This document shows, one piece after another, positions 6,399 to 48,756 of a DNA stretch of 64,000 nt. How positions within the stretch are numbered: position 1 is the stretch's first letter; each line of letters opens with the position of its first letter. The stretch covers positions 20,124-84,123 of the forward strand of contig CAWJLM010000005.1 in NCBI GenBank assembly GCA_963843725.1, written 5' to 3'. The position numbers and the translations under genes are program-made. The notes under the pieces are model-generated. The model saw nothing but the letters and a program-made list of their open reading frames with translations, ran no database searches and was not told the DNA's origin. This DNA is from an uncultured Acidobacteriaceae bacterium. Lineage in GTDB: Bacteria > Acidobacteriota > Terriglobia > Terriglobales > Acidobacteriaceae.

Positions 6399-6540
6399 AT
6401 AAGAAAGCCCCGTTTATCTTGCCTGGTGAAAGTGGAGTGAAAAGCGGCCACTGGAGAGAATCATAACTCGCAGTCTGCCGGATGCGTACGTATCAAACTA
6501 GAGGCGGCAGCAGCCTTGAGCGTCCCGCGTGCCGGCAAAA

Positions 6541-6632
6541 GGGCGAAAGCAGATTCCTCGGCGGCTGAAGCCGCCTCGGAATGACAAAAATAAAAAACCG
6601 TTACGGCGCACCTAAAGGTGCGCCCCTTCAAA
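6541..6632 (-). repeat. Composite hairpin repeat (B-hairpin plus A-hairpin module), inverted orientation
   Basis: The reverse complement reads TTGAAGGGGCGCACCTTTAGGTGCGCCGTAACGG..TTTTTGTCATTCCGAGGCGGCTTCAGCCGCCGAGGAATCTGCTTTCGC. The same two-hairpin module is seen at 13913..13996(-), 33237..33330(+), 36939..37035(+) and 48598..48740(+). Confidence 0.8.
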
Positions 6633-6728
6633 GCGCGTCGGACAAAGCGTGTCGGACAAAGCGCGTCGGACAAAGCGCGTCGGACAAAGCGTGTCGGACA
6701 AAGCGCGTCGGACAATGCGCGTCGGACG
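6633..6728. repeat. Tandem repeat, about 6.9 copies of a 14-nt unit GCG(C/T)GTCGGACAAA
   Basis: Units read directly at 6633, 6647, 6661, 6675, 6689, 6703 and 6717 (last one truncated). C/T alternates at unit position 4. Confidence 0.9.
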
Positions 6729-32920: not shown

Positions 32921-33180
32921 CGCCTTGAAGGGGCACGACTTCAGCCGTGCCGCATGCGGCATCAAGCTGTCGGGCTTGAGTCCCCTGAGGGAAATGGTCT
33001 ACACCTTACTCTGAGAATTAGACCCGGGAGAGCCAGCTTGAGGCTGGCGTTAAAATCCTATTACGTCGATCTACAGCGGTTTCACAAGTGTGCTCCTTCC
33101 AGCGCCTTGAAAGGGCACGGCTTCAGCCGTGCCGCACGCGGCATTCAACCCGTCGGGCTTTAGCCCCTGAGGGAACTTGT
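32921..33180. repeat. Two direct copies (32921..32998 and 33103..33180) of a roughly 78-nt two-hairpin module
   Basis: Copy 1 is GCCTTGAAGGGGCACGACTTCAGCCGTGCCGCATGCGGCATCAAGCTGTCGGGCTTGAGTCCCCTGAGGGAAATGGTC. Copy 2 is GCCTTGAAAGGGCACGGCTTCAGCCGTGCCGCACGCGGCATTCAACCCGTCGGGCTTTAGCCCCTGAGGGAACTTGTC. Confidence 0.85.
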
Positions 33181-33200
33181 CCTGCACCTCGCCTGAAAAT

Positions 33201-33352
33201 GCTCTAGCAGTTTGCTGAAAAACTCTCCGCAGCGCTCCGTTCGGGTAGAGCGACGCTTCAGCGTCGCGTCCAAGTCCTTTATTTTTGTCATCACGAGCCG
33301 GCTTCAGCCGGCGAGGGATCTGCTCTTTTGCGTTTTTCAGCAAACTGCTAGA
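33201..33352. mobile_element. 152-bp MITE-like element with perfect 22-bp terminal inverted repeats
   Basis: CTCTAGCAGTTTGCTGAAAAAC (33201..33222) and GTTTTTCAGCAAACTGCTAGAG (33331..33352) are exact reverse complements. The cargo is GCGACGCTTCAGCGTCGC plus TGTCATCACGAGCCGGCTTCAGCCGGCGAGGGATCTGC. A degenerate relative lies at about 48560..48756. Confidence 0.8.
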
Positions 33353-33620
33353 GCTGAGGCGGCCTTCCGCGTCTGGGTGAGAACTCAGATTTGAAAAGGC
33401 GCGCTGGTATGAAGCCACAGCTTGCGCGCCAATCAACGAGCGCCGCAGGCGCCAAAGAGTTTAGCCCAGCGCTTCAGCGCTGGGTAGGTGAAAAAAGAGC
33501 CCGAGTCCCGTAGGGACGACAGGATTCTTACGCAGACCCTTCAGGCCGAAGGCCGATATCGCGCCGATACGGCACAGGTAGCGCGCCAGCCTTCCAGTGG
33601 CGTTCGAGATCGCAAAAAGG

Positions 33621-33662
33621 TTAAGGCTCCACGGTCATTTTGAAATGACCGTGGAGCCTTAA
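33621..33662. terminator. Perfect 20-bp-stem hairpin downstream of the small ORF 33725..33847(-)
   Basis: TTAAGGCTCCACGGTCATTT-TG-AAATGACCGTGGAGCCTTAA. It lies 63 nt after the minus-strand stop. There is no clear U-tract, so function as a terminator is inferred. Confidence 0.5.
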
Positions 33663-33724
33663 GCAATTACTTCCAGCGCTGAAACGCCACTCTACTCGTA
33701 ATCCTAAAGCCGCCCCAGCCCGAC

Positions 33725-33847
33725 CTACATGTTGCTCATTTTGATGTAGCGGCCCATGTCCGGAAGGGACGTTAACACCAGATATCCTGCCACCAACAGC
33801 CCAGCAATGCCCATAATATTTCTTGCCGTCAGAAATGTCTTCTTCAT
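33725..33847 (-). CDS. Tiny single-TM protein (40 aa) with C-terminal LPDMGRYIKMSNM; paralog of 45011..45226
   Basis: The internal ATG at 33847 (MKKTFLTARNIMGIAGLLVAGYLVLTSLPDMGRYIKMSNM) has GGAGGTG 13 nt upstream. It shares a TM helix and the terminal motif with 45011..45226. Confidence 0.55.
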   Translation of the reverse strand: MKKTFLTARNIMGIAGLLVAGYLVLTSLPDMGRYIKMSNM

Positions 33848-34151
33848 AAAGATCCCCACACCTCCAGCTACATAGGATGACATCTGGACCAAAAGGGAGA
33901 CCTGCTGATTCCAGCTAAAGCTCAATTTGTTTTGCTTTCTGCTGGTTGGTTGCCGGGGTTCTTCGCCAGATCTGCTGTACAGAATTCAGTTTCCTGCGCT
34001 GCTTTCGAGCTCGAACAGGGTACAATACGCGCGTCCTGCGCGGTTTCGAATCGATTGCGATAACCAAGCATTTTTCGGGGCGGGCATTCTTTCTAGAGAA
34101 GCTCTCGAGATTTCCGCTGGTCCGCGCTATCGGTCTAAGGGGCGTTGGTGA

Positions 34152-35243
34152 ATGGGGGAACGGGAAAGCAAGAACGGAAGCTCCAAGAACGGCCGCCCCG
34201 CAAACATTGAGGAGATCGATGTGCTCTGGGTGACGGCTGGTTTGGGATGCGACGGCGATACCATCGCCATGACCGCTGCCACCCAGCCCAGTATTGAGGA
34301 CATCGTGCTGGGCGGAATTCCCTGGATACCGAAAGTCAATTTTCACAATCCGTTTCTGGCTGCGGCCAACGGTGACGACTTCCTCGAGCCCTTTCATCGG
34401 GCAGCCAAAGGAAAGCTGGCGCCTTTCATTCTCGTAGTCGAAGGTTCCATTCCCGACGAGACCAACAAGAAAGAAGGTTACTGGGCCGCGATGGGGACGG
34501 ACGCGGTTACCGGTCAACCCATCCTCACTTGCGATTGGATTGATCGCCTGGCGCCGCGCGCCTGGGCCGTCGTCGCTGCCGGAACCTGCGCCACTTATGG
34601 CGGCATTCATGCCATGCAGGGAAATCCTACCGGAGCCATGGGCCTGGCCGATTATCTGGGCTGGAGTTGGAAATCGAGCGCCGATATTCCCATCGTTTGT
34701 GTGCCCGGCTGTCCGGTCCAGCCCGACAACATGACCGAGACCCTGCTCTACCTTTTTTATATGGCGGCGGGACGCGCTCCCATGATTCCGCTCGATCAGC
34801 AGTTGCGCCCCACCTGGCTGTTTGGACAAACCGTACATGAAGGCTGTGACCGCGGAGGTTATTACGAGCAGGCCGATTTTGCCGACTCCTACGGGTCGCC
34901 GCTGTGCATCGTCAAGCTGGGATGCTGGGGACCGGTGGTGCAGTGCAACGTCGGCAAGCGAGGCTGGATGGGCGGCATAGGCGGCTGTCCGAACGTCGGC
35001 GGCATTTGTATCGGTTGCACCATGCCGGGATTTCCCGACAAGTTTATGCCCTTCATGAATCAGCCGCCGGGTTCGTTGTTATCGGCCAGTGCGGTGCAGA
35101 CTTACGGCAAAGCCATTCACGCCTTGCGCAGATTCACCCAAACCTCGCTCAACCAGGAACCCAGTTGGCGACGCCGTCGCGAGATCAACAAAAATGATAA
35201 AGTGGTTCGCCATAAGCCGCAGGCCGCGGACGGGCAGAAGTGA
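34152..35243 (+). CDS. [NiFe]-hydrogenase small-subunit paralog (HhyS-like) without an adjacent large subunit
   Basis: 363 aa. It is collinear with 38203..39270 (about 70% identity by eye) and all Cys blocks are conserved: GLGCDGD, GTCATYGG, VPGCPVQPD, HEGCDR, CIVKLGCWGPVVQCNV and GGCPNVGGICIGCTMPGFPD. No Tat motif. The C-terminal tail is divergent. Confidence 0.85.
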   Translation: MGERESKNGSSKNGRPANIEEIDVLWVTAGLGCDGDTIAMTAATQPSIEDIVLGGIPWIPKVNFHNPFLAAANGDDFLEPFHRAAKGKLAPFILVVEGSIPDETNKKEGYWAAMGTDAVTGQPILTCDWIDRLAPRAWAVVAAGTCATYGGIHAMQGNPTGAMGLADYLGWSWKSSADIPIVCVPGCPVQPDNMTETLLYLFYMAAGRAPMIPLDQQLRPTWLFGQTVHEGCDRGGYYEQADFADSYGSPLCIVKLGCWGPVVQCNVGKRGWMGGIGGCPNVGGICIGCTMPGFPDKFMPFMNQPPGSLLSASAVQTYGKAIHALRRFTQTSLNQEPSWRRRREINKNDKVVRHKPQAADGQK

Positions 35244-35264
35244 CGCGCCAGCGTGAGGTGAAGC

Positions 35265-36845
35265 GTGGCCTCAATGTCCGAAAGCCACCCCACTGTGAAG
35301 GATGATTCCCGGAGCTTGGCAGGTTTAGTTCAGCCCGGCACCAGCTACGGCGACGCCGAAGCTGTGCTTCAGGATCTGGCCAAAGTTTTCTTCGAAAACA
35401 CCAATCTTGCCGACAGCCCCAAGCGCTCGCCCTCCGTCGGATCGGCTCTGCCCGGCCTGGAGGCGAAGTACCGCGCTCTGGTCGAACAGATTCCGGCCGT
35501 CGTTTTCATGGCTTATCTCGACGAGGCGGCGGGCGAGGCCTACGTTAGTCCGCAAATAGAAGCCGCACTCGGGTTCACCCAGGAAGAATGGCTGCAAGAT
35601 CCAGTGCGCTGGTATGCGCAGATTCATCCTGACGACAAACTGCGCTGGAGCGTGGAAGCCGCCGGCTTATTTCTGTCGGGCAAACCGTTGCGCTCGGCCT
35701 ACCGGGTGCTTTCGCGCGATGGCCGCGTGATCTGGTTTCATTGCGAAGCCAAGATGATCCGCCGTGACGATGGCCGTCCCTGGTTCATTCACGGAGTTGG
35801 CTTCGATATCACCGACCTGAAACGAACCGAAGAAGCGCTGGAAGAAGAACGCAATGTTGTCACCGCGATTCTCGATACTGTCGGCGCCCTGGTCATCGTG
35901 CTCGATCCCGCCGGACGCATCATCCGATTTAATCGCGCCTGCGAACGCAGCACCGGCTGCACCTTCGCGCAGGCTTCGGGAAAACATGTGTGGGACCTGT
36001 TTATCCCTGCGGACGAGGCTGCTGGATTCAAGGCAAACTTCGAAAAGATGCGGGCCGGCGAACTGCAGAACGACTTTGAATGTCAGTGGCTGGCGGGTGA
36101 CGGTGCGCGCCGCCTGATCGCCTGGTCCGGCACTTCGCTGGGTAAAGGCAAGGGAACTCCTGCCTACGTGATCGCCACCGGTATCGACATTACCGAGCGA
36201 AAACATCTGGAACGCGCGATTCTGGAAATCAGCGAGCGCGAGCAGCGCCGCATTGGTCAGGACTTGCACGACGGCCTGGGCCAGCACTTGACCGGCATCG
36301 CCTTCATGACCAAAGTGCAGGAACAAAAGCTGAAGGAGAAGCATCTTCCTTATGCCGCCGACGCGGCCAAGATCGTGAAACTGGTCAACGAAGCCATCAA
36401 CAAAACTCGTGAGCTGGCCAGAGGCTTAAGCCCGGTGGTTTCCGAATCGTTCGGCTTGATGTCGGCCTTGCAGCAACTGAGCGCGGAAGTGCAGGACGTC
36501 TTTGGGGTATCCTGCCGCTTGACCTGCGACACTCCGGTTTTGATCGACGACGTCAGCCTGGCTACCCACCTCTATCACATCTCGCAGGAAGCGGTAAGCA
36601 ACGCCATCAAACATGGCAAGGCTCGGAACATCGACATTAATCTTGCGGCCAGCGACGCCCGCGGCGTCCTGACCATTCGCGACGATGGCTCGGGCTGCAA
36701 AAAAATTCCCGCTACCAGCAAGGGCATGGGACATCACATCATGAGTCATCGCGCCAAGATGATCGGGGGCACGCTGGATATTGAATCGTGTACTCCTCGC
36801 GGAACCGTGGTAACGTGCCTATTCCCGGTTAGAGGCAAACCGTAA
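35265..36845 (+). CDS. Cytoplasmic PAS-PAS sensor histidine kinase, HisKA_3 transmitter
   Basis: It starts 22 nt after the small-subunit paralog (GTG 35265 with GAGGTG upstream; ATG 35274 is the alternative). It has two PAS/PAC blocks. The H-box is RIGQDLHDGLGQHLTG. The HATPase region reads HISQEAVSNAIKHG...RDDGSG...GMGHHIMSHRAKMIGGTLDI. Confidence 0.85.
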   Translation: MASMSESHPTVKDDSRSLAGLVQPGTSYGDAEAVLQDLAKVFFENTNLADSPKRSPSVGSALPGLEAKYRALVEQIPAVVFMAYLDEAAGEAYVSPQIEAALGFTQEEWLQDPVRWYAQIHPDDKLRWSVEAAGLFLSGKPLRSAYRVLSRDGRVIWFHCEAKMIRRDDGRPWFIHGVGFDITDLKRTEEALEEERNVVTAILDTVGALVIVLDPAGRIIRFNRACERSTGCTFAQASGKHVWDLFIPADEAAGFKANFEKMRAGELQNDFECQWLAGDGARRLIAWSGTSLGKGKGTPAYVIATGIDITERKHLERAILEISEREQRRIGQDLHDGLGQHLTGIAFMTKVQEQKLKEKHLPYAADAAKIVKLVNEAINKTRELARGLSPVVSESFGLMSALQQLSAEVQDVFGVSCRLTCDTPVLIDDVSLATHLYHISQEAVSNAIKHGKARNIDINLAASDARGVLTIRDDGSGCKKIPATSKGMGHHIMSHRAKMIGGTLDIESCTPRGTVVTCLFPVRGKP

Positions 36846-36862
36846 TCAGGAACTATCGCCGG

Positions 36863-37081
36863 CTCATGCACCTGTTTTGTATCAGGGCACGACTTTACCG
36901 GAATGCAAAAAACTAAGTTGCTCAGGTAGTGCGGACGTTTTGAAGGGGCGTAGCTTTAGCTACGCCGTAGAAAGTCCTTTAGTTTGTCATCACGAACCGA
37001 CTTCAGTCGGTGAGGGATCTGCTTTCCGATTTTTCACGGCCCGCAAAGTCGCGCCTGATACAACTCAGCACAGTTCATGAG
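36863..37081. mobile_element. MITE-like element filling the kinase-regulator gap (CTCATG...TTTGTATCAGGGC end family plus B+A hairpin cargo)
   Basis: The left end is CTCATGCACCTGTTTTGTATCAGGGCACGAC (36863..36893). The reverse complement of the right end (37048..37081) is CTCATGAACTGTGCTGAGTTGTATCAGGCGCGAC. The cargo at 36939..37035 is TTGAAGGGGCGTAGCTTTAGCTACGCC...TGTCATCACGAACCGACTTCAGTCGGTGAGGGATCTGC. Confidence 0.7.
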
Positions 37082-37107
37082 ACCAGTCGTGGTCAAAGGT
37101 CGATACG

Positions 37108-37791
37108 ATGTCTACGAAACCAAGAGAAGAAACGGCCCGTAAAACCAGGATCTTCATCGTCGACGATCACCCCATCGTGCGCGAAGGGCTGTCGTTGATG
37201 ATGAACCGCGAGCCCGACATGATGGTTTGCGGCGAAGCCGAAGAGGCGACCGGCGCCTTACGGGCCATCATTACCGCCAAACCCGATTTCCTCATCGTCG
37301 ATATCTCGCTCTCCGGGCCGGATGGGCTCGATCTGCTGAAAAGTATTCGCGCCCGTTATCCCAATTTGCCGGTCCTGATTCTTTCCATGCACGACGAATC
37401 CATTTACGCCGAACGGGCGCTGCGCGCCGGAGCCAACGGTTACATCATGAAGCAGGAAGCGACGGAAAAAGTTCTGGTCGCCGTGCGCCAGATCTTGACT
37501 CAGAAAGTCTACGTAAGCGATCGCATTGCCAATCGCATGTTGCAGCGCTACATCAAAGGTTCGGTCAGCGAAGGTCAGTCCCCGATCTCGGAGTTGTCCG
37601 ATCGCGAACTGGAAGTCTTCCGCCTGATTGGCGAGGGACACGGCACCCGCAAAATCGCCGAGGAACTTCACCTGAGCGTGAAGACGGTCGAATCCTACCA
37701 GGCGCACATCAAGGAAAAACTCTCACTCAAGAATGGCCGCGAGCTGGTGCAGCGCGCCATTCAATGGACCATCTCAGAAGACGTAGCCTAG
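37108..37791 (+). CDS. NarL/FixJ-family response regulator (REC plus LuxR-type HTH)
   Basis: RIFIVDDHPIVREGL, FLIVDISLSGPDG, LILSMHDE, and HTH LSDRELEVFRLIGEGHGTRKIAEELHLSVKTVESYQAHIKEKL. Confidence 0.9.
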   Translation: MSTKPREETARKTRIFIVDDHPIVREGLSLMMNREPDMMVCGEAEEATGALRAIITAKPDFLIVDISLSGPDGLDLLKSIRARYPNLPVLILSMHDESIYAERALRAGANGYIMKQEATEKVLVAVRQILTQKVYVSDRIANRMLQRYIKGSVSEGQSPISELSDRELEVFRLIGEGHGTRKIAEELHLSVKTVESYQAHIKEKLSLKNGRELVQRAIQWTISEDVA

Positions 37792-37912
37792 CCAATCGTC
37801 GTCGCCAGGCTGGAAATCGATCTCTCTGACGCCCTTGCCCCTGATTTTTGAAGTGTTTGCGATCCGGCAATTCCTCCGAGTCGGCGGCAGAATTCCTCAT
37901 CTAAGGCCCATA

Positions 37913-37957
37913 GGGGAATCCCCGATCTGCGGTCCAGCCATTTTCCCTAAATGGGAA
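37913..37957. promoter_or_regulatory. Candidate operator sites upstream of hhyS: palindromes GGGGAATCCCC and TTCCC-TAAAT-GGGAA
   Basis: GGGGAATCCCC lies at 37913..37923 and TTCCCTAAATGGGAA at 37943..37957. Further GGAAT/ATTCC half-sites are at about 37868, 37889 and 37992. All sit 250-340 nt upstream of the hhyS ATG. Confidence 0.3.
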
Positions 37958-38202
37958 TCAGGTTGTGGGCCGTCTCTGTTTGCGTGATGCTATTCCCATC
38001 CGGTGCGTGGGGCACCGCTGCGGCTTGTCTTATTAGAAGCCCTCTTATCTTGAAGTTGCATAAGTTTTTGAACTGGCTCGCGAGGCTGGCAACCATTGGA
38101 GCAGGCATCACCTCGCACTAAGAAGAAAATCACCAGGTAAAACTCCATCGGGCATTCAACGGAAACACGTCATCACCGCGATGTTGAAAGGAGTATCCGT
38201 CT

Positions 38203-39270
38203 ATGACAGCGCAAGCAGTTCCGTACGGTCGGGGAACCCAAAAAAAACCGGCAGTGGCCGAAATCCACATCATCTGGATCACAGCCGGCCTGGGTTGTGA
38301 CGGCGACTCGGTTTCCATCACCGCCGCCACTCAGCCCAGCATTGAAGACGTTTTACTGGGAGCCATTCCCGGTCTTCCTAAAGTTCATTTGCACAATCCC
38401 GTGTTGGCTTACGAAGTCGGCGACGACTTCCTCAAACCTTTCTACCAGGCCGAAGAAGGCAAGCTCGATCCCTTCGTCCTGGTAATTGAAGGTTCCATCC
38501 CCAACGAAAAAATTCATAGCGACAAAGCCGGATACTGGGCCGCCATGGGCACCGACGCGACCACCGGTCAGCCTATCAAGACCACGGAGTGGATCGATCG
38601 TCTCGCTCCGAAAGCTTTGGCCGCAGTGGCCATCGGCACTTGCGCCACGTATGGCGGCATTCACGCCATGCAGGGCAATCCCACCGGCTGCATGGGACTG
38701 GCCGATTATCTTGGCTGGGATTGGCGCTCCAAAGCTGGACTGCCGATCGTCAACGTTCCCGGATGTCCGGTCCAACCCGACAACTTCATGGAGACGGTGC
38801 TTTATCTGCTCTACCAGGTTGCAGGCATGGCCCCGATGATTCCGCTCGACGATCAGCTGCGCCCGACCTGGTTATTCGGAGCGACGGTTCACGAAGGTTG
38901 CGATCGCGCCGGCTATTACGAGCAGGGGGACTTCGCCAGCGAGTACGGTTCGCCCAAGTGCATCGTCAAGCTCGGCTGCTGGGGCCCGGTGGTCAACTGC
39001 AATGTTCCCAAGCGTGGATGGATGGCCGGCATTGGCGGCTGCCCCAACGTGGGCGGCATCTGCATCGGCTGCACCATGCCCGGCTTCCCCGACAAGTTCA
39101 TGCCGTTCATGGATGAGCCGCCGGGAGCGCACGTTTCCAGCGGAGCCTCTGCCATGTACGGGCGGGCTATCAGGGCGCTGCGCTCGATCACCCAAGCTAC
39201 CGTCAACAAGGAGCCCAAGTGGCGTCATACCCGGGCCGAACTGACCACTGGTTATCACGGAAGATCCTAA
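38203..39270 (+). CDS. hhyS: [NiFe]-hydrogenase small subunit, group 1h/5 (high-affinity Hhy type)
   Basis: 355 aa with AAAGGAG upstream. There is no twin-arginine signal. It has a full set of FeS Cys motifs and a large-subunit gene follows 24 nt downstream. Confidence 0.9.
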   Translation: MTAQAVPYGRGTQKKPAVAEIHIIWITAGLGCDGDSVSITAATQPSIEDVLLGAIPGLPKVHLHNPVLAYEVGDDFLKPFYQAEEGKLDPFVLVIEGSIPNEKIHSDKAGYWAAMGTDATTGQPIKTTEWIDRLAPKALAAVAIGTCATYGGIHAMQGNPTGCMGLADYLGWDWRSKAGLPIVNVPGCPVQPDNFMETVLYLLYQVAGMAPMIPLDDQLRPTWLFGATVHEGCDRAGYYEQGDFASEYGSPKCIVKLGCWGPVVNCNVPKRGWMAGIGGCPNVGGICIGCTMPGFPDKFMPFMDEPPGAHVSSGASAMYGRAIRALRSITQATVNKEPKWRHTRAELTTGYHGRS

Positions 39271-39294: not shown

Positions 39295-41091
39295 ATGGGC
39301 ACAACTACACTTACCGATAAAGAAGCCCTCAGTCAGAAAAAGCAGATCGTAGAGATGAATTGGGATCCGATAACCAGAATCGTCGGAAGCCTGGGCATTT
39401 TTACGAAAATTGATTTTGCCAACCGGCACGTCGTCGAGTGTCACAGCACCTCGTCCATCTTCCGCGGGTACAGCATTTTTATGAAAGGCAAAGACCCGCG
39501 CGACGCCCACTTCATCACCAGCCGCATTTGCGGCATCTGCGGCGACAACCATGCCACCTGCGCCAACTATGCGCAGAACATGGCTTTCGGCGTCAGGCCG
39601 CCGGACCTGGGCGAGTGGATCGTCAATCTGGGCGAAGCCGCCGAGTACATGTTCGACCACAACATCTTTCAAGACAATCTGGTCGGCGTGGACTTCTGCG
39701 AGCAGATGGTGAAGGAAACCAATCCCAGCGTGTGGACCAAGGCGCAAAAAACCAATGCGCCGAATTCCAACCTGCACGGCTATCGCACCATCGCCGATAT
39801 CATGACCGCGTTGAATCCGTTCACCGGAGCGTTTTATCGCGAGGCTCTGCAGATGAGCCGCATGACGCGTGAGATGTTTTGCCTGATGGAAGGGCGGCAC
39901 GTCCATCCATCCACGCTTTATCCGGGCGGCGTGGGAACCGTTCCCACCATTCAGCTTTTCACCGACTACCTGGTTCGCTTGATGAAGTATGTCGAGTTCA
40001 TGAAGAAGGTTGTTCCTCTGCATGACGACTTGTTCGACTTCTTCTACGAAGCGTTGCCCGGCTATGAAGAAGTGGGCCGGCGGCGCATTCTGCTGGGTTG
40101 CTGGGGATCGTTCCAGGATCCGGCGCACTGCGATTACACCTACAAGAACATGGCCGACTGGGGCCGCAAGATGTTCGTCACGCCCGGGGTGGTGGTCGAC
40201 GGCGAGCTGGTTACGACCAGCCTGGTCGACATCAACCTGAACATCCGCATTCTGCTGGGCAGTTCTTACTATGACGACTGGGAGCAGGGCGAAACGTTTG
40301 TCACCAAAGATCCGCTGGGCAATCCGGTGGATCAGCGTCATCCCTGGAACCAGACCACTATTCCCAAACCGCAGAAGCGCGACTTCGGCGGCAAGTACAC
40401 CTGGGTCATGTCGCCGCGCTGGTATCACGAGAAGACCAAGGAATATTTGGCGCTCGACACCGGTGGTGGGCCGATCGCCCGCTTCTGGGCTACGGCGAAA
40501 GCAGGCCTGGTCGATATCGGCTACCTGAAGGCGACGGGCAATAGCGTGAAAATCTATTTGCCCAAGACCACGTCGCTGCCCGAAGTCGAGTTCGAGTGGA
40601 AGATACCCAAGTGGAGCAACGCCATCGAGCGCGATCGGGCCCGCACCTACTTCCAGGCATATTCCGCCGCTGCCGCGCTGCACTTCCTGGAGAAGGCGCT
40701 GGGCGAGCTGCACGCCGGACGCACCAAGACCTGGTCCGACTTCAAAGTGCCGGAAGAGTCGATTGGCTGCGGCTTCCACGAGGCAGTGCGCGGAGTATTG
40801 TCGCATCACGTGGTGATTCGTGATGGCAAGATCGCGAACTACCATCCCTATCCGCCGACTCCGTGGAACGCCAATCCCCGCGACATCTACGGCACCCCCG
40901 GACCCTATGAGGATGCGATTCAGAACACGCCTATCTTCGAGGAAAACGGGCCTGACAAATTCAAGGGCATCGACATCATGCGCGCGGTTCGCAGCTTCGA
41001 TCCGTGCCTGCCATGTGGTGTGCACATGTACCTTGGAAATGGAAAAGTGCTGCAAACACGGCACTCACCCATGTTTGGCGTGGTGAAGTAA
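39295..41091 (+). CDS. hhyL: [NiFe]-hydrogenase large subunit, group 1h/5
   Basis: 598 aa. The N-terminal metal-site motif is TSRICGICGDNHATC. The C-terminal motif is SFDPCLPCGVHMY, followed by a 20-aa tail that the endopeptidase would remove. These match the published group 5/1h L1/L2 signatures as I recall them. Confidence 0.9.
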   Translation: MGTTTLTDKEALSQKKQIVEMNWDPITRIVGSLGIFTKIDFANRHVVECHSTSSIFRGYSIFMKGKDPRDAHFITSRICGICGDNHATCANYAQNMAFGVRPPDLGEWIVNLGEAAEYMFDHNIFQDNLVGVDFCEQMVKETNPSVWTKAQKTNAPNSNLHGYRTIADIMTALNPFTGAFYREALQMSRMTREMFCLMEGRHVHPSTLYPGGVGTVPTIQLFTDYLVRLMKYVEFMKKVVPLHDDLFDFFYEALPGYEEVGRRRILLGCWGSFQDPAHCDYTYKNMADWGRKMFVTPGVVVDGELVTTSLVDINLNIRILLGSSYYDDWEQGETFVTKDPLGNPVDQRHPWNQTTIPKPQKRDFGGKYTWVMSPRWYHEKTKEYLALDTGGGPIARFWATAKAGLVDIGYLKATGNSVKIYLPKTTSLPEVEFEWKIPKWSNAIERDRARTYFQAYSAAAALHFLEKALGELHAGRTKTWSDFKVPEESIGCGFHEAVRGVLSHHVVIRDGKIANYHPYPPTPWNANPRDIYGTPGPYEDAIQNTPIFEENGPDKFKGIDIMRAVRSFDPCLPCGVHMYLGNGKVLQTRHSPMFGVVK

Positions 41092-41205: not shown

Positions 41206-41808
41206 ATGGCAAACGAAAAAGATTTCCAGCAACGGGTGCAGCGGATCGGCGCTCTGGTGCAAGAGATCGAGTCCATTGCCGACCCGGCGGTAAGGGCGTC
41301 GACCACACAACTGGTGCAACTGATCATGGAGTTCCACGGCACCGGCCTGGACCGAACGCTGGAGATTCTGGCAAACGCGGGCGGTCCGGGAATGGAAATC
41401 ATCGATCAATTGGGACGCGATCCCATGGTAAGCAGCCTGCTGGTGCTCTACGGACTTCATCCCGACAGCTTGGAGACGCGGATTACCAAAGCGCTTGAGC
41501 GGCTCGAACCCAAGCTGCGGAAAGATGGCGCTCGCGTGGAATTGCTGGGCATGGAAGACGGCGCAGTTCGCCTACGAGTCACTCCCGGCGAACACACTTG
41601 CGGATCGACCAGCAAAGCCTTGCAGGCTACGGTTGAAGATGCGATTTACGAAGTGGCACCCGACATCAGTTCACTCTCGGTAGAAGGTCTGGAAGGAAAA
41701 GCGGCGAGCGGATTCGTGGCGCTTGGCCAGTTGACGACTGCGGGGCCGGCCAGCGCCAAAGCTCCCGCGGCTCCGGCTCCATCGCTGGCAGCTAACTATG
41801 GGGACTAA
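41206..41808 (+). CDS. NifU C-terminal-domain-like protein (hydrogenase accessory)
   Basis: 200 aa. DGARVELLGMEDGAVRLRVTPGEHTCGSTSKALQATVEDAIYEVAPD resembles the NifU_C fold, with a single Cys instead of CxxC. Confidence 0.7.
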   Translation: MANEKDFQQRVQRIGALVQEIESIADPAVRASTTQLVQLIMEFHGTGLDRTLEILANAGGPGMEIIDQLGRDPMVSSLLVLYGLHPDSLETRITKALERLEPKLRKDGARVELLGMEDGAVRLRVTPGEHTCGSTSKALQATVEDAIYEVAPDISSLSVEGLEGKAASGFVALGQLTTAGPASAKAPAAPAPSLAANYGD

Positions 41809-42457
41809 AGATTCACCTTCGCTGGAAAGCGCCTTCGGAGTGCTGCGGCAGTTCGCCCGAAAGCCGCGCGCCGCCGAGCGCTGCGAGTTGTGCAGCCTGG
41901 AAATTTCTGCCCAACATCCTCACCTGATCGAGCCCGTGGCTCGCAAGCTGGTCTGCTCCTGCGATGCCTGTGCGTTATTGTTTAGTGGCCGTACCGACAG
42001 CCGCTACAAGCGAATACCGCGGCAGGTGCGGCTGCTGGCAAATTTTCAGATGTCCGATGCCCAGTGGGACAGCCTGATGATCCCCATCAACATGGCCTTC
42101 TTCTTCCACAGCAGCCCGGTCGGGCGCAAGGTGGCGATGTATCCCAGTCCAGCGGGCGCGACCGAATCTTTGCTCTCGCTGGAAGCCTGGAACGAGATTG
42201 CGCACGAAAATCCGCAGCTGGAAAAAATGGAAGCCGATGTCGAGGCCTTGCTGGTGAATCGTATCGGTCACGCCCGCGGCTTTACCAAAGCTGAGTATTA
42301 CGTTTTGCCGGTCGACCAGTGCTATAAACTCGTTGGCCTCATCCGCAGCCAATGGCGCGGATTCTCGGGCGGGGTCGAGGTTTGGCAGCAGATTGGAGAA
42401 TTCTTCTCCGGCTTGCGCAATAACGCAATCGTAACTGGAGGACGCGGCAATGCCTGA
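41798..42457 (+). CDS. Conserved hydrogenase-cluster protein with a 5-Cys motif (DUF5947-like, from memory)
   Basis: CELCSLEISAQHPHLIEPVARKLVCSCDACALLF. The ATG overlaps the upstream stop by 11 nt. Confidence 0.7.
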   Translation: MGTKDSPSLESAFGVLRQFARKPRAAERCELCSLEISAQHPHLIEPVARKLVCSCDACALLFSGRTDSRYKRIPRQVRLLANFQMSDAQWDSLMIPINMAFFFHSSPVGRKVAMYPSPAGATESLLSLEAWNEIAHENPQLEKMEADVEALLVNRIGHARGFTKAEYYVLPVDQCYKLVGLIRSQWRGFSGGVEVWQQIGEFFSGLRNNAIVTGGRGNA

Positions 42458-43100
42458 CCTCCAGTTTTTTTTCCAGAGGGTAGAGGTTGAGCCTTTCGCG
42501 GTTGCTCCGCAACTGGCATTCAAGATCCGGATCGCCAACGATACGCCGGACGAAGCTATACACACCGTCGCGCTGCGCGTTCAGTTGCAACTGGAGAGCA
42601 CGCGCCGCGGATACAAGCCGGAAGAGCAGGAGAGATTGCGCGACCTTTTCGGCGAGCCGGAGCGTTGGGGCAAGACGCTCAAAACTTTTTTGTGGACGCA
42701 CACCAGCGTGGTTGTTCCCGCCTTTTCTGAATCCACCGAAGTCAGCCTGCCGGTACCCTGCACCTTCGATTTCAATGTCGCTGCCACGAAATACTTCGCT
42801 GGACTGTCCGAAGGCGAGATTCCGGTGTGCGCGCAATTCAGCGGCACCGTGTTTTACGCGCAGAACGACGGCTCGCTGCAAGTCATGCCGATTCCCTGGG
42901 ATAAAGAGGTGCGCTTCCGGATCCCGGTGAAGGTTTGGAAAGACCTGATGGACGCCTACTATCCGGGCATTGCGTGGCTCTGCCTGGAGCGCCATGCCTT
43001 TGATCAGCTCTACCGCTACAAAGTGGAGCGCGGAATTCCCACCTGGGAGCAAGCGCTGGACAGCCTGTTACGCGCCGCTCAGGAGGAAGTGAAGTCATGA
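42450..43100 (+). CDS. Conserved hydrogenase-cluster protein of unknown function (DUF6084-like, from memory)
   Basis: 216 aa. The ATG overlaps the upstream stop (ATGCCTGA). Confidence 0.65.
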   Translation: MPDLQFFFQRVEVEPFAVAPQLAFKIRIANDTPDEAIHTVALRVQLQLESTRRGYKPEEQERLRDLFGEPERWGKTLKTFLWTHTSVVVPAFSESTEVSLPVPCTFDFNVAATKYFAGLSEGEIPVCAQFSGTVFYAQNDGSLQVMPIPWDKEVRFRIPVKVWKDLMDAYYPGIAWLCLERHAFDQLYRYKVERGIPTWEQALDSLLRAAQEEVKS

Positions 43101-44155
43101 ACTCGGCCGCTGCCGATCGCATCGCCAAAGCCGTGCTTTACGAGGGGTACATGCTCTATCCCTACCGGCCCTCGGCGGTGAAGAATCAGCAGCGCTTTAA
43201 TTTCGGAGTGGTCTATCCGCAGTCGTTCAGCCAGGCGCAGAAGGGAACCGATCCCTGGACGATGCAGACGGAATGCCTGGTGCAGGGAAACCTTGCCGCC
43301 AAACTGGAAGTTCAGGTTCGTTTCCTCCAGTTGGTGGAGCGCTCGGTTGAAGCCATAGCCGAGCCAGGAGCCACTTCCGCTGATTCCAGAAATTTTCTTC
43401 CGGTCAAAGCGCTCGCCGTCGACGGTCAAACGTTTTATTCCTGGCAGGAAGCGGTTGAGCGCGAACTGAAAATTCCTGCCACGGATCTGGAAAGTTTAAG
43501 CCGCTATTCGTTGCAGCGTCCTTTGCATCTTGCGCCCGCTGCCAGTGACGAAGAGCTGCGGAATGCCCAGGGTGCGTTGCTGGGTCGAATCGTGCGCAGC
43601 CAGGAGTCCATCGCTGGCTTAGTCGAGGCGCGGGCACACGAAATTGCGGAGCAGGTCTTCAAGATCACGGTAAGCGTCAGGAACATCACGCCGCTGGAAA
43701 ATCCGGCGAGCGTCACTCGTGATCATGCGCTGATGCGTTCGCTGGTGTCGGCGCACGTGGTGCTCGGGATCGAAGGCGGCGAGTTTGTCTCGCTACTCGA
43801 TCCGCCGGAATCGCTGCAGGCCGAAGTGGCCGGCTGCCACAATCAAGGCACATTCCCCGTCCTGGTGGGCGAAGAAGGGCAGCGCGATACGGTCCTCGCA
43901 TCTCCCATTATTCTCTACGACTATCCGCAGATTGCGCCGGAAAGCGCCGGCGACCTGTTCGACGGTACCGAGATCGACGAAATTCTTTCACTGCGCATCA
44001 TGACGATGACGGCTGAAGAAAAGAGCGAGATGCGGCAGTCCGATGAGCGCGCTCGACAGATGCTGGAACGCACTGAGACCATGCCGGCGGAGCAGTTCAT
44101 GAAGTTGCACGGCGTATTGCGCGGGTTGCGCCCACTCAAGGAGGATTCGCAGTGA
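43097..44155 (+). CDS. Hypothetical protein, hydrogenase-cluster associated
   Basis: 352 aa with ATGA start/stop overlap on the upstream gene. I recognise no family. Confidence 0.65.
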   Translation: MNSAAADRIAKAVLYEGYMLYPYRPSAVKNQQRFNFGVVYPQSFSQAQKGTDPWTMQTECLVQGNLAAKLEVQVRFLQLVERSVEAIAEPGATSADSRNFLPVKALAVDGQTFYSWQEAVERELKIPATDLESLSRYSLQRPLHLAPAASDEELRNAQGALLGRIVRSQESIAGLVEARAHEIAEQVFKITVSVRNITPLENPASVTRDHALMRSLVSAHVVLGIEGGEFVSLLDPPESLQAEVAGCHNQGTFPVLVGEEGQRDTVLASPIILYDYPQIAPESAGDLFDGTEIDEILSLRIMTMTAEEKSEMRQSDERARQMLERTETMPAEQFMKLHGVLRGLRPLKEDSQ

Positions 44156-44991
44156 ACGAGTGGGAATGGCAGCTGCTCGAAGACAAATCCGGAGTCGAGA
44201 GCGTTGTGATTGACGGCGTAACCGTCCGCATCGGCGATCGTGTCCGGCTTCGTCCCCGCAAGGGCGGCGACATCATGGATATCGCTTTGGCCGGCCAGAC
44301 CGCTGCCATCGAAGCCATCGAGCAGGATTACGAAGGCAAGATTCACGTTTGCGTGGTGCTCGATGACGACCCTGGTCGCGACATGGGGCTGCTTCGCCAA
44401 CCGGGCCACCGCTTCTTCTTCGATGTGGGAGAAGTCGAGCCTCTGCCTCCCGAAGAGCAAGTGCAAACCAGGGCCATCGAGAAGCCGCGCATTCTGGTCG
44501 CCGGCATCGGCAATATTTTTATGGGCGATGATGCCTTTGGAGTCGAAGTTGCGCGTCGTCTGGCGGAGCGCGATTTGCCCGCTGGGGTGCGCGTCGCCGA
44601 CTTCGGCATCCGCGGTTTCGACCTGGCCTACGCGCTGCAGGATGGATATGAGACGACCATCCTGATCGACGCCTACCCGCGTGGCGATGAGCCCGGCACG
44701 TTGTATGTGGTCGAACCTGACCTGGCGTCAATGGGTCCGGAGCAGGCAGATAGCGGCGACGTGGATGCGCACGGCATGGATCCGGTGAAGATCCTGCGCC
44801 TGGCGGCCTCTATGGGAGGCCCGCTGAAACGAATGTTGCTGGTGGGATGTGAACCGGCGACTCTGGGCCCCGACGAAGGACTGATGGGCTTGAGCGAACC
44901 AGTTAACGGAGCTCTGACGGAAGCGGTAAATCTGGTTGAGTCGGTAATTCATAAGGTCCTGGCTGGAGAATGGCCAGGCACAAAACCGTAA
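44152..44991 (+). CDS. Hydrogenase maturation endopeptidase (HyaD/HupD family) with a roughly 110-aa N-terminal extension
   Basis: The protease core begins ILVAGIGNIFMGDDAFGVEVARRL and continues ...DFGIRGFDLAY...LIDA...DAHGMDP...LLVGCEP. The start GTGA overlaps the upstream stop. Confidence 0.85.
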   Translation: MNEWEWQLLEDKSGVESVVIDGVTVRIGDRVRLRPRKGGDIMDIALAGQTAAIEAIEQDYEGKIHVCVVLDDDPGRDMGLLRQPGHRFFFDVGEVEPLPPEEQVQTRAIEKPRILVAGIGNIFMGDDAFGVEVARRLAERDLPAGVRVADFGIRGFDLAYALQDGYETTILIDAYPRGDEPGTLYVVEPDLASMGPEQADSGDVDAHGMDPVKILRLAASMGGPLKRMLLVGCEPATLGPDEGLMGLSEPVNGALTEAVNLVESVIHKVLAGEWPGTKP

Positions 44992-48566: not shown

Positions 48567-48756
48567 TGGGGTGCTGAAAAACTCTGCGGCGAGTGATTTT
48601 GAAGGGGCGCGGCTTTAGCTGCGCCGTCGAGAGCCCTTTATATTGTCATCACGAACCGGCGAACCGGGTCCCCGACGAGCGCCTTTTTTGCGCTGGCTGG
48701 GGCAAAGTTCAGCCGGTGAGGGATCTGATTTCCGACTTTGTTGGCAGCCTGCTAGG
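48560..48756. repeat. Degenerate relative of the 33201 element carrying a B+A hairpin module with an insertion in the A loop
   Basis: The left part is CTGCTAGTGGGGTGCTGAAAAACTCTGCGGCG (compare 33201 CTCTAGCAGTTTGCTGAAAAACTCTCCGCAGCG). The core is TTGAAGGGGCGCGGCTTTAGCTGCGCC...TTGTCATCACGAACCGG[45-nt insert]CAGCCGGTGAGGGATCTG. The left end overlaps the hypE stop codon. Confidence 0.6.

Follow-up and report, generated by a model that had tools for sequence, protein, structure and literature searches.

A group 1h hydrogenase small-subunit paralog as candidate iron-sulfur input subunit of a PAS_3 histidine kinase encoded next to hhySL in Acidobacteriota

The hhySL locus and its second small-subunit gene

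The analyzed window, i.e. 64,000 nucleotides (nt) of a 1.1-Mb metagenome contig from an uncultured Acidobacteriaceae bacterium (CAWJLM010000005.1, positions 20,124 to 84,123), whose closest named relatives are Acidobacteriaceae metagenome-assembled genomes (MAGs), carries the genes of a group 1h [NiFe] hydrogenase, hhyS and hhyL, preceded by the genes of a two-component system and by a second small-subunit gene, hereafter S2. All these genes lie on the forward strand, in the following order: S2 (34152..35243), which encodes a group 1h-type small-subunit paralog of 363 aa, a cytoplasmic PAS_3-PAS-HisKA_3-HATPase_c histidine kinase (35265..36845), a NarL/FixJ-type response regulator with a REC domain and a GerE helix-turn-helix (37108..37791), a 411-nt spacer, hhyS (38203..39270) and hhyL (39295..41091). 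The five open reading frames (ORFs) described in an earlier note on this DNA were all confirmed. HhyS is recognized as the catalytic small subunit by its Pfam domains and its ELTTGY tail. HhyL displays two motifs, RICGICGDNH and DPCLPCGVH, and is extended by 21 aa at its C-terminus; its best match in the PDB is HofG of 5AA5, a group 1h enzyme. A tblastn search of the window did not reveal any second large-subunit gene or remnant, HhyL being the sole large subunit encoded there. As the earlier note claimed, no large-subunit gene follows S2, and the kinase, the regulator, the 411-nt spacer and hhySL come next. S2 is thus not directly upstream of its large subunit; the kinase gene comes instead, after a spacer of 21 nt (not 22 nt as announced), and both genes are in the same frame. 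No terminator-like site was found in this 21-nt spacer. The start of the kinase gene is preceded by a GAGGTG ribosome-binding site, the ATG at 35274 being an alternative start.

S2 carries the Oxidored_q6 and NiFe_hyd_SSU_C domains (Pfam) and is 72% identical to HhyS over 337 aa (E = 0), in agreement with the collinearity and the identity of about 70% previously estimated by eye. Its best PDB match is 5AA5_A, HofK from the Cupriavidus necator group 1h enzyme (560 bits; aligned residues 14-344). All the iron-sulfur (FeS) cluster ligands said to be kept are present (C33, D34/D36, C146, C187, H229, C232, C252, C258, C265, C279, C286 and C289), and the corresponding columns are invariant or nearly so in 68 orthologues. 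S2 therefore has the fold of a group 1h small subunit and the ligands for three [4Fe-4S] clusters, whose binding is predicted. The ligands of the proximal cluster are three Cys and one Asp, as typical of group 1h (PMC11023054).

The divergence between the two paralogs is not confined to their termini, as had been thought. Fifteen core positions, internal rather than terminal, are fixed differently between the S2 and HhyS clades, and HofK has the HhyS state at most of them. Two added conserved cysteines, C127 and C183, are typical of S2; the second replaces an Asn present in HofK, HoxB and a NiFeSe enzyme and is located four residues before the proximal-cluster ligand C187. Only the N-terminal domain is modelled confidently by AlphaFold2 (residues 225-363 have a predicted local distance difference test score, pLDDT, <50), and the topology of this model would place both C127 and C183 on its cluster-binding side. 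The fixed changes also include two replacements of a hydrophobic residue by a polar one, I105N and L208R. Among the positions invariant in HhyS, 15 are relaxed in S2 and about 194 out of 209 are retained. The C-terminal helical extension of S2 (residues 299-338) is more strongly conserved than that of HhyS, which suggests that it could form a new binding surface. Overall, S2 is under strong purifying selection, with a mean identity of 82% and 179 of 324 columns conserved at >=97%.

The extreme C-terminus distinguishes the two proteins most simply: catalytic HhyS end with KEPKWRHxRxELTTGYxPRSY, and S2 with a short, variable and basic tail. The L[TS]TGY tail was found in none of the 60 small subunits whose gene is followed by a kinase gene, versus 59 of the 64 followed by HhyL. 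The five exceptions to this rule are two near-variants and three loci with the order small subunit-large subunit-PAS_3 kinase (L064, L067 and L074). This tail is an empirical group feature, drawn from the HhyL-linked small subunits sampled in this survey; it allows annotators to exclude sensor-type copies when catalytic hhyS genes are counted in metagenomic surveys. Two S2 copies (L053:2671-3849 and L057:8081-9160) hold degenerate remnants of the catalytic tail, ELTSGY and ELKSGD, as if this tail had decayed after the sensor lineage arose. L053 is labelled Blastocatellia, and L057 groups with S2 sequences of Blastocatellia though labelled Heliomicrobium.

Association of S2 with a PAS_3 kinase across genomes

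A scan of species-representative genomes, with one genome per species, identified 80 loci, mostly in Acidobacteriota, including Terriglobia (Acidobacteriaceae, Bryobacterales, Acidiferrales) and Blastocatellia (Pyrinomonadaceae). S2 has abundant homologues with 80-95% identity, HhyS of the same locus being far more distant from it. The five-gene order S2-kinase-regulator-hhyS-hhyL recurs with differing upstream flanks in L002-L006; three of the close homologues of S2, traced to their contigs, displayed it. More generally, a PAS_3 kinase gene lies directly downstream of the S2-type gene in 64 of 69 loci, 48 of which also carry the regulator and hhyL downstream, and regulator orthologues (67-95% identity) occupy the same position in the Terriglobia loci. 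A scan of soil metagenomes with the PAS_3 profile, which kept close relatives (79-90% identity) and thus tested the linkage within Acidobacteriota, showed S2 directly upstream of the PAS_3 kinase in 72 of the 73 contigs with sufficient upstream sequence. The arrangement that the earlier note had described from one genome is therefore widely conserved in related ones. No large-subunit gene follows S2 for any of the 68 acidobacterial genes of the S2 clade. Apparent S2-kinase fusions in L011, L031 and L059 were artefacts due to the extension of tblastn hits past the stop codon, and none remains.

In a neighbour-joining tree of 135 small subunits, calculated over their conserved core with 200 bootstraps, the 68 kinase-linked S2 and the 57 HhyL-linked HhyS from Acidobacteriota were separated in all replicates (200/200), so that the phylogeny of both small subunits places them in separate clades. 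The mean identity is 82% within S2, 88% within HhyS and 72% between them. Neighbours are never swapped, as no member of either clade carries the neighbour gene of the other one. Within both clades, the branching follows matching taxonomic groups, suggesting an ancient split followed by vertical descent. Bootstrap values on exact clade membership are low (0.10 and 0.195), since the position of sequences lying outside both clades, and perhaps of some basal ones, varies between replicates. Rooted with HofK, the tree places the S2 clade of Acidobacteriota among tail-less sequences of Planctomycetota and Binataceae, in a basal region that is poorly resolved. Mirror-tree and coevolution statistics were set aside, since shared vertical inheritance makes them uninformative.

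Our analysis also revealed relatives of S2 that have kept a large subunit. In L064 and L074 (Planctomycetota) and in L067 (Binataceae), the gene of a tail-less small subunit bearing the S2 signature is followed by a large-subunit gene and then by a PAS_3 kinase gene. The large subunits of L067 and L074 have intact NiFe motifs and a C-terminal extension; the large-subunit gene of L064 is in two pieces, possibly due to an assembly error, and both motifs are still present. The S2 signature, including C127, C183, N105 and R/K208, thus occurs in small subunits encoded with their own large subunit and therefore is not an adaptation to being alone. The description of S2 as an orphan small subunit holds for Acidobacteriota but not for the wider tail-less branch, which keeps its own large subunit in other phyla. 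From these sequence comparisons, we conclude that S2 is probably a member of a sensor-type group 1h branch, and that Acidobacteriota would have lost its cognate large subunit.

The Binataceae MAG deserves a separate description, as L067:8206-19046 carries two hydrogenase gene pairs. The first one, preceded by another kinase-regulator pair, encodes a tail-less S2-type small subunit and its own large subunit and is followed by a PAS-PAS_3-HisKA_2 kinase gene; the second one is HhyS-like, LTTGY-tailed and associated with accessory genes. This locus resembles a sensor hydrogenase next to a catalytic one.

The kinase encoded downstream of S2 lacks any membrane segment. It carries HisKA_3 (Pfam E = 2.8e-12) and HATPase_c (2.4e-12) domains, and the regulator carries Response_reg (4.8e-27) and GerE (3e-15) domains; these are the two-component domains of the NarL/FixJ class, between which phosphotransfer is predicted. 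The closest solved kinases are of the DesK type. The PAS_3 domain (aa 66-190; 35460..35834) is the sole part of the kinase that constantly accompanies S2-type small subunits, similarity being limited to kinase residues ~30-195 in divergent loci. Among 88 collinear orthologues, its mean identity (83%) equals that of the DHp domain, which has to fit the regulator, and exceeds the 54-56% of the ATPase and second PAS domains. A helix-like N-terminal motif (aa 29-48; 35349..35408), AEAVLQDLAKVFF, shows a mean identity of 49%; tblastn hits start near aa 29-31 in divergent loci, and related motifs head the kinases of these loci, those of Planctomycetes included. The alignment of PAS_3 domains does not contain any invariant cysteine, the single frequent one being a Gly in four divergent loci (one from Verrucomicrobia, one from Binataceae and two from Planctomycetes).

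Furthermore, PAS_3 is fused to three transmitter families: (i) HisKA_3 in the window and in Blastocatellia, (ii) HisKA, with or without GAF, PAS, REC or Hpt domains, and (iii) HisKA_2. The retention of PAS_3 while transmitters and outputs change fits a sensor module rather than a structural subunit located beside a regulator by chance. A search of protein databases with the kinase N-terminus returned fragments of 170-294 aa, of no use for a census of domain architectures. Two loci (L026:9863-14707 and L031:9767-14738) present another organization, in which S2 precedes the gene of a kinase of about 850 aa (PAS_3-GAF-PAS-HisKA-HATPase) and that of a REC-HD-GYP regulator of the cyclic di-GMP (c-di-GMP) phosphodiesterase type; hhySL was not found within 10 kb of these two modules.

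The alignment of the regulator-hhyS spacers from 13 orthologous genomes revealed one conserved block (37911..37997, forward strand), a footprint that would include candidate regulator-binding repeats and a candidate promoter. It consists of GGGGAATCCCC (37913-37923), then TTTCCCTAAATGGGAATCAGG (37942-37962) directly followed by TTGTGG-N17-GATGCT, and then ATTCCC; neither of the two longer motifs recurs elsewhere in the window. Within 450 nt upstream of hhyS, GGGAATCCC was found with no more than one mismatch in 49 of 66 loci, versus in 10 of 73 upstream of S2. It is kept where extra genes part the regulator from hhyS and is missing in the loci of Blastocatellia and Planctomycetes, whose regulators are about 30% identical or absent. 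The footprint thus tracks the Terriglobia-type regulator, and its organization fits a site for a NarL-type activator beside a promoter, to which the regulator would bind. A second conserved block, GGTGCGTGGGGCACC (38000-38016), common to the closest relatives L002-L010, could fold into a hairpin. It is located in the long (~200 nt) leader of hhyS, immediately after the candidate -10 element.

Possible function of S2 and alternative explanations

Taken as a whole, these data make it probable that S2 is the FeS input subunit of the PAS_3 kinase and that the regulator acts on the hhyS promoter. The proposal of the earlier note that S2 is a functional partner of the PAS kinase is thus strengthened by the near-obligate adjacency of S2 and PAS_3, the swaps of transmitters, the pairs located far from hhySL and the purifying selection; its fallback, an alternative structural subunit found by chance next to a two-component system, now appears unlikely. 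S2 would bind the kinase via PAS_3, probably through its C-terminal helical extension, and the redox state of its three [4Fe-4S] clusters would set the activity of the kinase. The latter would phosphorylate the NarL-type regulator, which would then act at the GGGAAT repeats upstream of the hhyS promoter and control hhySL and the downstream accessory genes. We infer the redox or H2 signal, the contact between S2 and PAS_3 and the control of hhySL, including the binding of the regulator and the sign of the regulation.

The electron source is the least certain step of this scheme. Tentatively, S2 could borrow HhyL, the only large subunit at hand, and make with it a sensor heterodimer of low turnover comparable to HoxBC. 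We slightly prefer this possibility to a sensor working without large subunit for three reasons: the same type of S2 is encoded with a large subunit elsewhere, S2 retains nearly all the positions invariant in HhyS and, during the exponential phase of the Acidobacteriaceae strain KBS 83, transcripts of hhyL but not of hhyS are present while S2 is expressed.

The closest working analogue is the group 2b system (HoxBC-HoxJ-HoxA of C. necator and HupUV-HupT-HupR of Rhodobacter). In both cases, the gene of a hydrogenase-derived FeS protein lies beside those of a soluble PAS histidine kinase and of a response regulator, and the module of S2 also adjoins the hydrogenase genes thought to be its target. 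In addition, the sensor-type small subunits of Planctomycetes and Binataceae (L064, L067 and L074) have their own large subunit, as expected for a heterodimer. However, unlike in group 2b, neither S2 of the window nor any of the 68 genes of the S2 clade is followed by a large-subunit gene, S2 is only 32% identical to HoxB compared to 72% to HhyS, and the regulator is of the NarL/GerE type whereas HoxA is annotated as sigma-54 dependent (NtrC type). Homology of the S2-linked PAS_3 to HoxJ was considered and rejected, as hhalign gave their profiles a probability of 0.2%, i.e. no relation beyond the general fold; HoxJ aligns weakly with the second PAS (E = 0.002). Since S2 and its partners do not belong to group 2b, their resemblance to HoxBC-HoxJ-HoxA reflects an independent recruitment. 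The C-terminal extension of HoxB is likewise a region under special constraint, to which residues 299-338 of S2 can be likened.

Compared to HhyS and HofK (5AA5), S2 has the same fold and ligand set, no twin-arginine signal and a C-terminal helical extension; it differs from them by the absence of a following large subunit and of the ELTTGY tail, the 15 fixed substitutions, the two extra cysteines and the pairing with a PAS_3 kinase. Like group 2c (diguanylate cyclase-linked [NiFe] hydrogenases) and group C [FeFe] hydrogenases (linked to PAS, kinase and phosphatase), it belongs to a hydrogenase-derived module with varied outputs (see L026 and L031). However, these groups are defined by their catalytic subunit and none derives from group 1h, whereas the small subunit is the conserved element here. 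Sensors of the NreB or FNR type are based on a comparable principle, an FeS cluster whose state tells a signalling protein about redox conditions or O2. In NreB, the cluster is held by four cysteines of the PAS domain itself; by contrast, PAS_3 is devoid of such a cysteine motif, and the clusters are carried by a separate hydrogenase-type protein.

The statement of the earlier note that group 1h has no known dedicated sensor overlooked brief published remarks. Giguere et al. 2020 (PMC8027828) reported, in KBS 83 and in Edaphobacter aggregans, an additional copy of hhyS that shares about 70% identity with it and is located about 3.6 kb upstream. This "hhyS homolog" is of the same gene family and has the same arrangement as S2. 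The same article cites Greening et al. 2015 for Pyrinomonas methylaliphatogenes, and our Pyrinomonadaceae and Acidobacteriaceae loci both fall in the S2 clade. In KBS 83, the S2 homolog is transcribed, with a 13-fold rise in stationary phase, and hhyL but not hhyS transcripts were detected in exponential phase (PMC8027828). That report consists of a few sentences and quantitative PCR (qPCR) data, and does not include any survey, phylogeny, PAS_3 module, swapping of transmitters, tail rule, relatives with a large subunit or footprint. We did not find any published mechanism or survey of the S2 arrangement in the literature searched. The arrangement had thus already been flagged briefly; our survey extends this observation considerably and overturns nothing.

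Several points weigh against a sensor that controls hhySL. Hhy is induced by carbon starvation and not by H2, and atmospheric H2 is always present (PMC8027828, PMC13098282, PMC13289019), which weakens the logic of H2 sensing; moreover, a sensor dependent on HhyL would need basal expression of hhyL and hyp before induction. The S2 homolog of E. aggregans was not expressed in either growth phase (PMC8027828). In at least six species-level genomes, no hhyL lies within 10 kb of the S2-kinase pair, and the motif located upstream of hhyS is absent upstream of S2 in the window, so that an autoregulation of S2 was rejected. One of the 73 metagenome contigs carries the kinase without S2 (L120:1406-3513, from a soil metagenome), with a DUF6893 gene followed by those of the PAS_3 kinase, the regulator and HhyS; this could be a natural deletion or a misassembly. 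Part of the S2 signature is also present in a catalytic small subunit of Planctomycetes (L068) and may therefore reflect ancestry rather than function. Besides, the root of the neighbour-joining tree and the order of its basal branches are not secure. Finally, the predicted protein contact, cofactor, phosphotransfer and DNA binding of the module all rest on comparison.

S2 could also be an FeS redox or oxygen sensor working without any large subunit, with PAS_3 reading the state of clusters that would either come to redox equilibrium with an electron carrier of the cell, for instance the acceptor pool fed by Hhy, or react with O2. This alternative, which we consider nearly as likely as the borrowing of HhyL, though less likely than not, shares with our preferred explanation the role of S2 as input subunit of the kinase and differs from it in the source of the signal alone. 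It accounts well for the lack of a cognate large subunit after all 68 acidobacterial S2 genes and for the S2-kinase pairs located far from hhySL and wired to other outputs such as HD-GYP. It also agrees with the known physiological trigger of Hhy (starvation or redox), and FeS assembly would require housekeeping machinery alone, independently of NiFe maturation, so that the sensor would work before the induction of hhy and hyp. In addition, C127 and C183 would be on the cluster-binding side of the N-terminal domain, and I105N and L208R could reflect a newly exposed surface. However, these cysteines, N105 and R/K208 are also found in small subunits that have their own large subunit and so are not adaptations to its loss, and the retention of about 194 of the 209 HhyS-invariant positions is hard to reconcile with the loss of a very large interface. 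Furthermore, a proximal cluster exposed in the absence of a large subunit would likely lack stability in these aerobes. In its boldest form, this reading makes S2 a free-standing three-cluster redox sensor on a dedicated PAS_3, forming a portable module plugged into several outputs, namely NarL-type transcription control of hhySL, classical and hybrid phosphorelays and HD-GYP c-di-GMP turnover; we regard it as less likely than not.

The other explanations are less probable. S2 might dock on HhySL, take electrons from its distal cluster and report the flux through Hhy or the back-pressure of its acceptor. The C-terminal helices of group 1h enzymes mediate their dimerisation (5AA5 geometry) and offer a possible docking route, S2 keeps its helical extension (299-338), more conserved than in HhyS, and lacks the extreme tail alone, and the hydrogenase that precedes the PAS_3 kinase in L064 and L074 may be the only one encoded there. 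Nevertheless, we judge this tap on Hhy improbable, as it is a purely structural speculation, leaves the S2-kinase pairs with HD-GYP regulators far from hhySL unexplained and requires the presence of Hhy before Hhy can be induced. The conservation of all cluster ligands, the strong purifying selection and the availability of a single HhyL with which S2 could pair are also what would be expected if S2 replaced HhyS in a second catalytic form of Hhy, its two-component neighbours being incidental. Such an isoenzyme is very improbable in our opinion, since S2 is linked to one PAS_3 domain and not to hhyL, a linkage that survives transmitter swaps and relocation away from hhySL, since it lost the tail conserved in catalytic HhyS and since it never lies directly before hhyL in Acidobacteriota. 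Lastly, the absence of an adjacent large subunit and of transcription of the homolog in E. aggregans could evoke a decaying or non-functional duplicate. The intact ORF in about 68 species-level genomes from two acidobacterial classes, the mean identity of 82% with 179 of 324 columns conserved at >=97%, the retained FeS ligands and the expression and induction in KBS 83 make us dismiss this explanation almost entirely.

Group 1h hydrogenases, regarded as the principal biological sink of atmospheric H2, contribute to the survival of dormant soil bacteria. Acidobacteriota rank among the most abundant H2 oxidisers of soils (PMC8027828), and the induction of Hhy is still acknowledged as an open question (PMC13098282, PMC13289019). 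S2, PAS_3, the NarL-type regulator and the GGGAAT-repeat operator provide a concrete and widely conserved candidate for this switch. HydDB lists groups 2b and 2c as the only [NiFe] sensors; if our proposal is true, S2 would be a second, independent case of a hydrogenase turned into a sensor. This sensor would exist in two forms, with a large subunit in Planctomycetota and Binataceae and without it in Acidobacteriota, and their comparison could show what a small subunit senses alone. If S2 turned out to work without any large subunit, it would define a new class of bacterial redox sensor and constitute the switch, responsive to starvation or redox, so far missing for the scavenging of trace gases in this dominant soil phylum.

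Surroundings of the module

Downstream of hhyL, the region 41206..44991 (forward strand) carries the Hhy accessory genes, which encode an NifU-like FeS protein, a DUF5947 protein, a DUF6084 protein, a 352-aa protein, for which no Pfam family scored above its cut-off, and a maturation protease of the HycI type. They are followed, up to 49951, by genes encoding YceI, HypD, HypE and an SIS protein.

Upstream of S2, a gene on the reverse strand (33725..33847) encodes a DUF6893 (PF21833) membrane peptide of 40 aa with a single span. Some 30 related loci contain a homologous gene, in most cases immediately before S2 and on either strand. In the window, this gene is followed by a terminator-like hairpin with a 19-bp stem (33621-33662). 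The Rfam scan of positions 33000-39000 did not detect any riboswitch or leader in the S2, kinase and hhyS leader regions. A match over the full model to the Acido-Lenti-1 small RNA family (RF01687) was found at 33439-33484 on the reverse strand (49.2 bits for a gathering score of 37), between a PLD-like gene and the DUF6893 peptide gene.

The spacer between the kinase and regulator genes (36846-37107) reaches 262 nt, versus about 20-60 nt for most relatives. Within it is a short dispersed repeat with inverted arms of about 30 nt (36872-36901 and 37040-37068). Related copies are located at 33272-33339, at 48597-48739 and, on the reverse strand, at 6527-6635, and the closest relative, L002, carries copies at other positions. 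This repeat resembles the insertion, within the operon, of an element similar to miniature inverted-repeat transposable elements (MITE) or repetitive extragenic palindromes (REP).

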